Source: Paraspadella gotoi
Taxonomy: Eukaryota; Animalia; Chaetognatha
Assembly (NCBI GenBank): GCA_051294375.1
Contig: CM119267.1
Coordinates: forward strand, 6,189,992 to 6,253,991
DNA length: 64,000 nt
Reading direction: 5' to 3'
A program made the translations under genes and the position numbers. Below the pieces are notes generated by a model. The model ran no database searches, was not told the origin of the DNA, and saw only the letters and a program-made list of their open reading frames with translations. Numbering within the stretch: position 1 is the stretch's first letter; each line of letters begins with the position of its first letter. This document shows, piece after piece, positions 776 through 64,000 of the stretch.

Positions 776-2669
776 GATGGGCTTCGGAAGGAAGAAGTTT
801 CTGCTCTGTCCGGCCCAAACGAGTTCGCTGAGTTTTATTCTCGCCTAAAATCCATCAAGGAGTTTCATAAGAAGCATCCCAACGAGATCACAGTTCCCAT
901 GTCCTTGGAATTTGAGGAGATAGCCAAGGTGCGTCCCTTGCACGGATTAGATTAATTAATGGAATTTTTGTTAGCAAATTATTTCATTTTGTTTGTTGCT
1001 TAACAATGCTTTTATTTTAAAAAAGTGAAATTTAATTTCGGTAACGTCATCATTTTTTTTGCAATTATAAATTTATTCCATTCAAAAATTACTATTAGAT
1101 TAAATTCTTACCAAAATGTTTAAATCTCAATAATAAGCGTTGATGTTCTAAACCAAAGGTCCGAGAGTCGGAAGCCAACGACGAGTCGACGAATCTCGCC
1201 GAATTCACAGACGAAGAAGGCTACGGTCGCTACCTCGACATGAACGAGTGCTACGACAAGTTCGTCAACCTTAAGGGCATAGAGAAGGTGGACTACCTCG
1301 CCTATTTGGCCACTTTTGACCACCTATTCGACGTCCCCAAGGACAAGAAGACCTCCGACTACAAGAAGTATCTCTCCGCGCTCCTCGACTACTTTTACGA
1401 CTACGTCTCCCGCGTCAAACCGCTTCATGACATCAACGAAGAGATGGAGGCCGTGGTAAAGGACTTCGAAGCTCAGTGGGAAGCCGGCACCTTCCCCGGC
1501 TGGCCCAAAGAGGCCTCCGGCGCCCTCACCCATTCCGGCGCTCACCTCGACCTCTCGGCCTTTTCGTCTTGGGAAGAACTGGCCTCCCTTGGATTGGATC
1601 GTCTCAAGTCCGGCCTGATGGCGCTGGGACTCAAATGCGGTGGGACTCTCGAGGAACGGGCTCAACGTCTCTTCCTTACCAAGGGAAAGGCGCTAGAGTC
1701 CTTGGACTCCTCGCTCTTTGCCAAGAACAAACCAGGAAAAGGAGGCAGCAGCGTTAAGGATCGGGAGAAGCAGAAGGAGATAGCCGCGCTCGAGGCTCAA
1801 GTCTATCGATTTTCCGGTACGAACGTTATTGATTTTAATGATCGATAAATTCGAGGATTCGCGAAAGACTTTTCTTATTTCGGCCAAATTCGTTAGAACT
1901 TCTTTCGGAACAAAGATCCGCGACGAGGGAAAACATCCAACGCAAACAAGCCCGAACGGACGCCGAGCGCGAGGAGGAAGAGGAGGAGGCCATGTCGGAT
2001 TCGTAAGTCTTTTTCACATCGATCTCGTTTCGAATTGACATTTTTCGCGGATTTTATTTTTCCAGAATAAAAACAGAGCAAACAAACAATTGCGGTAATG
2101 GTTGAAAAAAATTCTTATTATATTTTGATTATTATTATGTTATGTTATGATTTTTCGCGGATTGATCTTTATTTTTTTTACAGAGACTCGGATGACGACG
2201 AGAACGAAGTCATTTACAATCCGAAGAATCTCCCGCTCGGCTGGGACGGGAAGCCGATTCCCTACTGGCTATATAAGCTTCACGGTCTTAACATTTCTTA
2301 CAGCTGCGAAATTTGTGGAAATCAGGTGATTATTTTTTGCTAAGTTTATAATTTATATTTTGTTTTCATTATTTGAAATTTTTCAATAATTTTTTTCGGA
2401 CATAGACTTATAGAGGCCCCAAAGCCTTTCAACGGCACTTCGCCGAATGGCGGCACGCCCACGGGATGCGGTGTTTGGGGATCCCCAACACGGCTCACTT
2501 TGCCAACGTCACCTCCATCGAGGACGCCGTCGCTCTCTGGCAGAAACTTCGGGCCAACAAAGAACACGAGAGATGGAAGCCCGACCAGGAGGAAGAGTTC
2601 GAGGACAGCCTGGGCAATGTCATTCCCAAGAAAACTTTCGAAGACCTCAAACGACAGGGCTTGCTGTAA
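776..2669 (+). CDS. SF3A3: Splicing factor 3A subunit 3 (PRP9); 5' exon(s) upstream of the window; exons ~776-928, 1159-1816, 1896-2002, 2184-2325, 2406-2669
   Basis: Motifs [98 protein letters not shown] introns keep frame. Confidence 0.97.
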
Positions 2670-2851
2670 ATTTTTAGTCGAGAACTTTGAAAATAAAAAG
2701 ACGCATCACTACCCTAAGCCTAGAGTAGAAATATCCGCGGTCCATATTTTTTTGTCTCGATCGTACTTTGATCAAATTTTTTCATCATACACGTTGCATT
2801 TTGTCACCTTTCGTTTAAAAAAAATAAATTTCTTTCCATAAGAAGTCAAAC

Positions 2852-61060: not shown

Positions 61061-62216
61061 TGATACTAATACTATGCTTCTTTTTTAAATTTTTGGTGTT
61101 TTGCTACGTACGTACATATTTATATGTGGGTATTTTTTTCTTTGATTTGATTTTTCGCGTAGATCGAGTGTCTCAAGTGTACTGTCACTTTACAAATGAG
61201 TGCTGTGTCAAATTGGTAAGGTGAATTATTAATTTGAAAGAACCACCAAAAAGATAAGTTCATACAGTTTTTTTTTTTTTTTGTATCTCTATTATCTTAT
61301 TTATTTGTATTTTTATTGACACAATGCCCGGTTCAAATGAGGGAGAATTTTTGTTTTGACAATCCATCAAAGCATTTGGGTGTTATTAAATTTATTTAGT
61401 TGTCCTGCTTTTAATTACAAAAATGATTGTGCATCGTACATAGTACATAGTACATTGTTTATTGAGCCTTTTCCTAAGAATTTTGTAGATTGGGAAAGAT
61501 TGACGATAATGATTTCAGAGGTGAAGATGCAAATATTGATTGTGAAGGAATTTTGTTTTAATGGACGCTTAGTATGCTATGATTCAGAATATAATCTGAG
61601 ATGAATAGTCTTTTTTACTGCTAAAACTTATATGCATTGCCAATGTAATTGGCTGTATCAAACCATATGCATATCCGCTACATTCTTTCATTTTGAATCA
61701 ATTAAATACTCTCAAATCCGGAAGGAGTATGGTGAAAATCTGTAGGGATTATATATCATTATACAAAAGCGACATATTATTATTTAACCAAGTAGCTGAA
61801 AAAAAATATTTTTGGTTGTTAGAAATTGATAACAAATATTTCTAACATTTGCTTTGAGTGCTGATAAAATGTGAAATAATAGTTAGATTTTAAAAATATA
61901 TTATATAAAACTAAGAAATTCCGGATCTAACGAGTACAATAAATGCATTTTTTATAATTGTACTGATTCACTGTATTCATTTGTAAAGTGACACTACGCT
62001 TGAGACACTAAGTAGATTTTCTATTTATCATTTATTTTCAAAATGATTTCTCTTTCTTTACGCTTTATCGACGTTTTCGTAATGATTTTGAATCCGTCTT
62101 TTTATGAGACTTAGTTAATTCCCACAAAAAAAGCGAAAAAAATGAGAGTTTGGACTGGAAATTAAAGAACATAACTTTTAATAATTCCGTCGTCCGAATG
62201 CGACGCGTATTAAGAA

Positions 62217-64000
62217 ATGGATGGAGATCGCTCGGACATCGATCTCTTCGACGATAGTGATCCAGAGGATCAGGAAGATTCCCTATTCTTTAATCCTTCC
62301 GCCGCGAAAAAACTAAAAATCGAAGATGAAACGACTCGAACAGGATGTCAGCTTTTGAGCCAGTCGACCGGTCATTCGACAGATCTTTCTACTGGCCAGT
62401 TTACCGGCCAATCCACCGGCCAGTCGACAGGTCATTCGACGAGCCAATCCTCAGAGGAAAGTGATAATGAACTCAACTCGACGGGGACTTCCGAGTGCCG
62501 CTCTTCCTCGCTCTTTGGAGAGGAATCATCGGAAGCTGATGAGGATGAAATCTCGATGAACGACGATGCGGAGCGAAAAATTAACGGCAACGTTGACGAC
62601 CTCTCGACCAAAGACGACCAAAGTGGTTCCGCTCATTGTGAGAGAACGGAAGAAAAAAATATAACAAACTCTGGTAGGTATTATTTTAGTACCAATTCGA
62701 ATTAAGTTTGTTACATTCAATCATTTTTAATACAGTGTTTAATACCCGAATGCTTCTCCCTCTCAAATGCGCGAACATTATTCAAATCTTTTGTCTAACT
62801 CAGAAAACGACGCTCAGTTCGCAGATCCAATTGCCAAAGGCGGATGTGTCGAAAAACAAAAGAACATAGCCGAGAGGAGAGCAAAGAAAAAAGTTAGCAA
62901 AGGAAAATAATTTGTCAATGGAGACTTAGGATTCAGATGAAAATATCGTATCCCTTAGCAACGTTTCGTGCCATTGCACGACATGCGATGGGGGTATTTG
63001 TCAGTGACCGACCTCGTGGCTCAGTCGTGGTGCGAGCAACAGCTCTTTTACGGCTACTTTCCTCCAACCCCCGATTACGTCGCCGTTCCTCTCGAAGAGG
63101 TGGCGCCCGCCGTCGCCGCGGGACAAGAAATACATCAGGTGACTTGTCATCGCAATCCTTATTAAAATTTTAAATAGAAAATAAATATCAAGCTTGAATA
63201 AATACAGGAAAGAGATGCGGAGCTTGGAGAAAAAGTCTTGGTCGAGACTCGAACGAAGGAGGACAGAGTCGCCATGGATTTGGCTCAACTGCTGGAGGTC
63301 GGTAAAGATTCTTAATTCTCAGAGTAGAAGGAATTAAGGGATCGCGATTTTGGAAAGATTTTCGTAAAATTCCTAACTCTCTCTCTCTCTCTCTCTCTCA
63401 TCCGCTCTTCTCAGTGTCTTCGCGCGTTTATTTTCGCCGACTCGGGGGAAGTTGTTCGGCGGGAAATTCCCATTTTCGGATTTCTTCCGTTAAAGTCGAA
63501 TAGGTCTGGCGTCTCCAACGGAACTTCTGAAGTCGGAAAGAGTAAAGCCAGTGCGTAGTTAATGATTAAATACGTCATTTCAATTCTTGGGAGTTAAACT
63601 TAATTACAGTGTTATTAGACGTGATTGTTTTTAATTTCTAATTTTATCTTTAAGAATACATATGAGACTGCTAATGATCGAACAAAGAAAGAGAAATATC
63701 TTATTATGATTATCTTTATTTTTCTAACAGAGACTTTGGTGTCGCCGCGAGGACTTCCGGTGGAGATGCTCGTCAGCGGCGTCATCGACGAACTTCGCTT
63801 CGACGTCAACGATGGGAAACTGACGCTTGTCGAACTAAAGACTCGTTTTAAACCGACGCTGCCGGGGCAAGCTCAGAGGCTGGGTCATAACCTTCAGGTA
63901 AACATCTAATAGTCCCTTTTAATTGTCACTCTTGTCTAAAAAAAACCTACCAATAATTATGAAAAAATACATGAACTGAAAGTTTTAATGACATTACATT
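62217..64000 (+). CDS. EXO5: Exonuclease V (EXO5/DEM1), multi-exon, 3' end beyond the window
   Basis: YLSVTDLVAQSWCEQQ, AGQEIH, VRREIPIFG, LVSGVIDEL, LTLVELKTR...LPGQAQ...H.LQ; acidic N-terminal extension with STGQ repeats. Confidence 0.87.
63377..63399. repeat. (CT)n microsatellite in an EXO5 intron
   Basis: Short perfect dinucleotide run upstream of a splice acceptor. Confidence 0.9.

Follow-up and report, generated by a model that had tools for sequence, protein, structure and literature searches.

A 25-gene one-strand array in the chaetognath Paraspadella gotoi and its possible transcription as spliced-leader-resolved operons

Introduction

Spliced leader (SL) trans-splicing and an operon of RPS14 and PCNA were described in 2008 for the chaetognaths Spadella cephaloptera and Flaccisagitta enflata (PMC2481426). 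In Paraspadella gotoi nearly half of the 21,072 genes are trans-spliced and 18% of genes are operonic, operons being defined as genes <250 bp apart; the SL is not operon-specific, the longest operon holds 9 genes and peaks from the assay for transposase-accessible chromatin (ATAC) are retained near gene starts (PMC12460157). The words strand, orientation and unidirectional are absent from the main text of that paper, its supplementary tables being outside the scope of the comparison. The present analysis concerns 64,000 nucleotides of P. gotoi DNA (assembly GCA_051294375.1, contig CM119267.1, positions 6,189,992 to 6,253,991 of the forward strand). This whole stretch is termed the window and all coordinates refer to it. 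An earlier note had described in it 25 consecutive unrelated genes on one strand, here termed the array, and had proposed very long polycistronic units or strand-locked gene clusters in this animal.

Results

Gene content and orientation

Gene models were rebuilt by chaining exons across GT/GC..AG introns. All 25, mostly of housekeeping type, lie head to tail on the + strand and together span position 776 to beyond 63897, at least 63 kb, with coding sequence making up 70% of 776-64000. The stretch 29001-36000 was examined only as the Trio open reading frame (ORF). Twenty-four of the 25 models are open to a single stop with GT/GC..AG introns. For EXO5 the first four exons are secure and the final two were modelled without read-through. 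The first exon(s) of SF3A3 lie upstream of the window and EXO5 continues past its end, thus the one-strand run is open at both ends. In a leave-one-gene-out codon test the in-frame + reading ranked top for 25/25 genes, the margin being small for the gene at 58422-61060, and the Pfam curated cut-off was reached by 20 of the 25, with the SIL1-like protein just under it and four genes without a match. The 25 same-strand genes of the earlier note are therefore borne out.

No credible minus-strand gene had been seen previously and this also held. Among minus-strand ORFs, 0 of 130 of at least 75 aa in the whole window and 0 of 96 of at least 30 aa in the non-coding segments reached the Pfam cut-off, in a search blind to exons of <30 codons and to non-coding RNAs. 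(The number of short ORFs found was 97, one being omitted as already covered by the scan at 75 aa.) A codon scan of the non-coding DNA gave repeats and one GC-rich intronic element only, and no minus-strand gene. Tandem paralogy was rejected since the Pfam families differ, as the description of the genes as non-paralogous required; shared Pfam classes are limited to two unrelated WD40 proteins, two ribosomal proteins and two exonucleases.

The models contain 47 cis introns and 10 of the 25 genes have a single exon. The large conserved genes of the cluster are intron-poor, Trio (2684 codons) lying nearly all in one exon, 28312-36366. Two introns were modelled as GC..AG, 38053-38147 and 18628-18750, the one in GFM2 being backed by an RNA joint.

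Intergenic spacers

The array spacers are short and T-rich. Stop-to-start distances range from 76 to 1496 bp with a median of 233 bp; 13 of the 24 are ≤250 bp, 17 are ≤360 bp and five measure 76-132 bp. All spacer lengths quoted in the earlier note were reproduced. Elements with terminal inverted repeats (TIRs) were found in three long spacers and, once these are removed, 20 of the 24 spacers are ≤360 bp, those still >400 bp being of 448, 1037, 1350 and 1496 bp. On the operon reading given in the Discussion, the longer spacers would mostly be TIR insertions or 3' untranslated region (UTR) and not promoter space. A TATA-like hexamer precedes 1 of 24 genes, a count which is uninformative because the genes are of housekeeping type. 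The 10-N assembly gap lies in the 1037-bp spacer, and 19 genes precede it.

Intron 3 of TSR1 is likewise occupied by a TIR element (18939-19642), and intron 1 of Trio (27265-27344) carries a fragment related to the inside of that element, 95% over about 40 nt, twice. The observed/expected CpG ratio of the whole window is 1.35, alike in coding DNA and spacers, which agrees with a report that chaetognaths have lost gene-body methylation (PMC12460157).

RNA at two junctions

RNA evidence was taken from a single contig run, X1, the RNA nature of which was guessed and in which splicing was seen here. X1 contains 78% of the sampled words, and the alignment covered 36500-43400 (6.9 kb). All eight GFM2 introns are skipped in X1. 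A contig of 4909 nt begins at 37581, 282 nt upstream of GFM2, and runs through spliced GFM2, the 128-bp spacer and the whole of ACOX3 to 43217, where it ends inside the 576-bp TIR element. A second contig covers the 3' side of Trio up to a (TC)n repeat and the 4909-nt contig resumes directly after it. The 1496-bp Trio-GFM2 spacer is RNA-covered from 36500 on, apart from this skipped repeat. Depth equalled exon-only cover in 12 of the 14 bins checked, which indicates that spacers are covered and introns are not. Of the two deviating bins, one was lower by 12 bases missing from the X1 allele and one was higher from other contigs. Of the two junctions, GFM2-ACOX3 is bridged and Trio-GFM2 is mostly covered. 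By its length the Trio contig does not reach BCAS2.

Lineage and spliced leader signals

Exon 3 of RPL7 matches the two uL30 proteins of S. cephaloptera with 97% and 95% identity, and other named animals reach at most 83%. At full length the identity is 90.8% to S. cephaloptera versus 67-71% to other named animals. RPL7 identity places the animal among the chaetognaths. Searches for homologs of BCAS2 and ACOX3 gave no close named relative, none of 10 single-exon proteins looked up in a protein collection was present there and a metagenome scan with BCAS2 found 6 distant loci (54-74%), uninformative on gene order.

The N-termini of RPL7 relatives were examined for SL-encoded peptides among 374 proteins. 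In one the N-terminus is exactly what the 3' end of SL2.0 encodes, and in four it is an SL1-like peptide. These five belong to chaetognath-like RPL7 clusters; no SL peptide motif was present near the N-terminus of the remaining proteins. RPL7 identity, the published SL forms and these peptides together indicate a lineage with SL trans-splicing. In the array itself acceptor-like sites precede many start codons, candidates being found at 5398, 12840, 25907, 37799, 40993, 44600, 45354, 46091, 52037 and 53227, among others. The AG acceptor at 5398, ahead of RPL7, is strong, and no donor was found upstream of it in the 132-bp spacer. An AG occurs within 10 nt of the ATG in 17 cases versus 9 expected, an excess which is discounted because start-codon context confounds it. 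A search of the window for an SL-like pattern gave a single match with 3 mismatches, compatible with chance (13/100 shuffles), and Rfam gave nothing at the gathering threshold.

Probability of the run

A probability of 0.5^24 (~6e-8) had been given for the run under random, independent orientation. The arithmetic is correct but the null is too weak, because a scan singled out this window and because, where there are operons, neighbouring genes are not independent; with SL operons already published for the phylum the figure overstates the surprise. Taking the P. gotoi operon rate as the null gives p=1.3e-6, or ~0.012 runs of 25 or more genes per 21,000-gene genome, and ~0.36 per genome for the 19-gene run before the gap. 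When genes with spacers ≤360 bp between them are grouped into blocks, 8 units result (8, 4, 2, 4, 1, 3, 2 and 1 genes) and p=0.008; 500-bp blocks give 6 units and p=0.03. The 25-gene run exceeds known operon rates, yet is far less extreme than 0.5^24.

Individual genes and other features

The features are collected in Table 1. Ahead of the first in-window exon, the intron of SF3A3 contains a GGAC-repeat element (1-240). Intron 2 of RPL7 contains a GC-rich stretch inside otherwise AT-rich sequence (5850-6100), which folds as a long hairpin (z -1.75, 11/200 shuffles) and in which C- and D-box-like motifs are seen by eye. It is possibly a small nucleolar or small Cajal body-specific RNA, though Rfam gave no significant match for this stretch. 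RPL28 is divergent, with Pfam scores of 47 and 42 bits for its exons, and may be a second paralog. The ORF at 20252-22015 gave no Pfam match, no Jumonji domains and no atlas match at 0.9 or above; it contains a short, putatively JARID2-like motif. The gene at 23366-24628 gave nothing above the Pfam cut-off. The protein encoded at 58422-61060 has two unnamed homologs (E 1.9e-13 and 1.1e-10).

Table 1. Genes, spacers and elements of the window. Names preceded by "presumably" go beyond the Pfam family and are tentative.
Feature	Position	Strand	Evidence
SF3A3, 5' exon(s) before window	776..2669	+	Pfam SF3A3, SF3a60_Prp9_C; model
F-box protein, single exon	2852..5296	+	Pfam F-box
RPL7/uL30	5429..7089	+	Pfam; exon 3 97% identical to S. 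cephaloptera A8E671
HPS3, 2-exon model	7327..11482	+	Pfam HPS3_N
WD40 protein, presumably GNB1L-like	11572..12670	+	Pfam WD40
WD40 protein, single exon, presumably WDR24-like	12893..16063	+	Pfam WD40
TSR1	16370..19892	+	Pfam RIBIOP_C, Tsr1_G-like, AARP2CN
587-aa low-complexity single-exon ORF	20252..22015	+	codon test
4-exon gene, C-terminus hydrophobic and glycine-rich	23366..24628	+	open spliced model; codon test
Short-chain dehydrogenase, presumably PECR-like	24852..25706	+	Pfam adh_short_C2
BCAS2/SPF27	25914..26534	+	Pfam BCAS2; homologs
Trio/Kalirin RhoGEF, last exon 8 kb	26841..36366	+	Pfam RhoGEF, Spectrin, SH3_KALRN
Trio-GFM2 spacer, 1496 bp	36367..37862	+	RNA contigs flank (TC)n repeat: 36500-37459, 37581-37862
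Mitochondrial EF-G2-like gene, presumably GFM2, 8 introns	37863..40903	+	Pfam EFG domains
GFM2-ACOX3 spacer, 128 bp	40904..41031	+	bridged by spliced 4909-nt RNA contig
ACOX3, single exon	41032..43173	+	Pfam ACOX; homologs
Element like a miniature inverted-repeat transposable element (MITE), with TIRs, 576 bp, ACOX3-ATG10 spacer	43190..43765		0/200 shuffles
ATG10-like	43955..44578	+	Pfam Autophagy_act_C
DUF2340 protein (C2orf76-like)	44655..45117	+	Pfam DUF2340
RPL28, divergent	45406..45980	+	Pfam Ribosomal_L28e
Flavin-binding monooxygenase	46100..47838	+	Pfam FMO-like
DUF829 protein (TMEM53-like)	48287..49522	+	Pfam DUF829
10-N assembly gap within 1037-bp spacer	50462..50471		sequence
Nucleotide exchange factor, presumably SIL1-like	50560..51936	+	Pfam Fes1 just under cut-off
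3'-5' exonuclease, presumably EXD1-like	52142..53098	+	Pfam DNA_pol_A_exo1
Coiled-coil protein, presumably golgin-45/BLZF1-like	53313..56094	+	open 8-exon model; nothing above Pfam cut-off
Element with 16-bp perfect TIRs, 294 bp, spacer	56124..56417		0/200 shuffles
M20 peptidase, presumably PM20D1-like	56549..58192	+	Pfam Peptidase_M20
802-aa protein, conserved C-terminal stretch	58422..61060	+	open model; no Pfam match
Element with TIRs, 843 bp, spacer	61167..62009		0/200 shuffles
EXO5, leaves window	62217..64000	+	Pfam Exo5 at cut-off

Discussion

The array is best explained as a strand-locked chain of a few long operons resolved by SL trans-splicing, a reading to which a probability of about 0.58 is assigned. 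It builds directly on the gene order, the strand, the short T-rich spacers, the lineage and one spliced two-gene contig. RNA polymerase II would initiate at a handful of points and traverse several unrelated genes, giving a precursor from which 3' cleavage and SL addition just 5' of each start codon would release single mRNAs. Between 2 and 8 promoters would then serve the window, and the array genes of P. gotoi would receive the SL. The strand locking itself may have arisen by growth of the run through promoter-free insertion in the sense direction. A gene landing in sense would be expressed by read-through from upstream and an SL acceptor, with no promoter of its own, while one landing in antisense would be silent or collide with transcription; co-oriented runs would accordingly grow. 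As a local mechanism, polycistronic SL-resolved transcription is well supported by the operons of the phylum and the bridged junction, and to this extent the earlier proposal stands. The surprise attached to operons in this animal, in a note made without knowledge of the lineage, was overrated, SL operons having been published for the phylum (PMC2481426, PMC12460157).

A comparable run is found in S. cephaloptera. The table for bacterial artificial chromosome (BAC) 35A21 has 24 rows, in which the oriented host-type genes are 14/14 on the + strand over ~120 kb, though one gene split in two may account for a pair of the 14, and the rows were taken from the PDF layout; four minus rows are transposon entries (PMC2481426). 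The co-orientation of the BAC genes is mentioned in that paper, unquantified.

Several observations weigh against the reading as a chain of operons. The RNA data cover two of the 24 junctions, Trio-GFM2 and GFM2-ACOX3, and a contig over two genes cannot prove a single molecule, since overlapping UTRs would look identical. If the UTRs merely overlap, however, the ACOX3 promoter would have to sit within the transcribed end of GFM2. By length arithmetic the Trio contig starts ~112 nt 5' of the ATG, within the BCAS2-Trio spacer, and so stops short of BCAS2. Its depth is 25.8 versus 87.7 for GFM2-ACOX3, 3.4-fold apart. No SL was seen at the 5' end of GFM2 or ACOX3 among the loose ends listed for X1. 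A position weight matrix for acceptors, built from 45 cis introns and applied to windows of 40, 60 and 120 nt before the start codons, gave scores not above those of shuffles (367, 390 and 488 of 1000, respectively, reached the observed mean) nor above those of spacer controls; with no acceptor enrichment the sequence alone gives no demonstration of trans-splicing. The RPL7 relatives that bear SL peptides come from other species and are probably the other RPL7 paralog. The SL is also carried by monocistronic genes, and Trio is a signalling and neural gene, a class reported as depleted from the operons of P. gotoi (PMC12460157). Finally, the authors of the BAC study selected 35A21 because its genes are co-oriented, and its table leaves out predictions that lack a SwissProt match. 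The surplus of 112 nt in the Trio contig was considered as an SL plus a 5' UTR exon, a suggestion that was rejected, as length alone cannot decide.

Could the whole array be one kinetoplastid-style unit of 25 or more genes, read from a single upstream initiation zone, on chromosomes made up largely of such units between strand-switch regions? The 63 kb without a strand switch and with both ends open would be explained, as would the one-strand pattern of the S. cephaloptera BAC, and of the long spacers the longest is RNA-covered and three others are accounted for by insertions. This is nevertheless unlikely. P. gotoi retains ATAC peaks near gene starts, leaves about half of its genes without trans-splicing and has no annotated operon of more than 9 genes (PMC12460157); the Trio contig appears to begin in a spacer, and the 1350-bp spacer and the gap-holding 1037-bp spacer are unaccounted for. 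Given RNA at two of 24 junctions, four spacers >400 bp and this start of the Trio contig, the single 25-gene unit is not demonstrated. Of the two proposals in the earlier note, the strand-locked cluster is retained, at a size beyond the reported operon length.

Less probable again is a row of monocistronic genes, each with a compact promoter in the spacer or in the upstream 3' UTR, where the SL serves to trim outrons and contigs merge through overlapping UTRs. Spacers of 76-132 bp are nearly too small for a 3' UTR plus a promoter, and 24/24 same-strand neighbours would be left without a reason, at ~6e-4 such runs expected per genome. The absence of acceptor enrichment, the lack of an SL among the loose ends listed and the unequal depths of neighbouring contigs are all as this explanation predicts, and in P. 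gotoi more of the trans-spliced genes lie outside operons than within them (PMC12460157).

Least probable is that ordinary operons of 2-8 genes became co-oriented by chance as the tail picked by a scan, or that a misjoin at the gap lengthened the run, for although the p=0.008 for 8 blocks is reachable in a genome-wide scan and the run before the gap is expected ~0.36 times per genome, the full run is expected ~0.012 times and an independent chaetognath BAC has 14/14 genes on one strand.

A wider and more tentative possibility, beyond the chain of operons in this window, is that arrow-worm chromosomes are organised into kinetoplastid-like directional domains, with dozens of unrelated genes over 60-120 kb or more expressed as one or a few SL-resolved polycistronic units. 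Such an architecture was not found described for any animal within the literature searched, and the 250-bp operon rule would split these domains into short pieces. Should long strand-locked domains prove to be the rule, operon calls based on distance would miss part of the co-transcription, and the animal would regulate many housekeeping genes post-transcriptionally, as trypanosomes do. Operon growth by promoter-free insertion into read-through domains would then be directly testable, since annotation, long-read and ATAC data exist for P. gotoi.

Comparison with known systems

Trypanosomatids also have long unidirectional arrays. In the units of Leishmania major, polyadenylation and SL trans-splicing separate the mRNAs of functionally unrelated genes; there all protein-coding genes lie in units, have no promoters of their own and use one SL (PMC11708010). 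Tens of unrelated genes in one direction are also found here, with 25/25 on the + strand over 63 kb. Unlike trypanosomatids, the array has many cis introns (47) and trans-splicing in chaetognaths reaches only about half of the genes, which argues against the rule that all mRNAs are trans-spliced holding for the phylum.

The operons of tunicates (Oikopleura and Ciona; PMC4122922, PMC7986045, PMC11067885) and of the flatworm Macrostomum lignano (PMC8629364) resemble the array in joining unrelated housekeeping genes head to tail in polycistrons resolved by an SL not specific to operons. They differ in size, most having 2-3 genes with maxima of up to 11 in tunicates, 6-7 in Ciona and 9 in Macrostomum, and their SL sequences are unrelated to the chaetognath SL. 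A run of 25 or more genes is two to three times the longest reported animal operons (9-11 genes) and is echoed by the Spadella BAC table.

Chaetognath operons share with the array housekeeping, ribosome and RNA-processing genes placed head to tail on one strand across short intercistronic distances, and RPL7 relatives bear published SL forms. The difference is that the longest of these operons has 9 genes (PMC12460157) whereas the array has 25 or more and includes Trio. The literature searched, which excluded most subscription journals, yielded no description of long unidirectional gene domains in any animal, chaetognaths included. The mechanism is thus already published for the phylum, and a directional run of this length is new within that literature.

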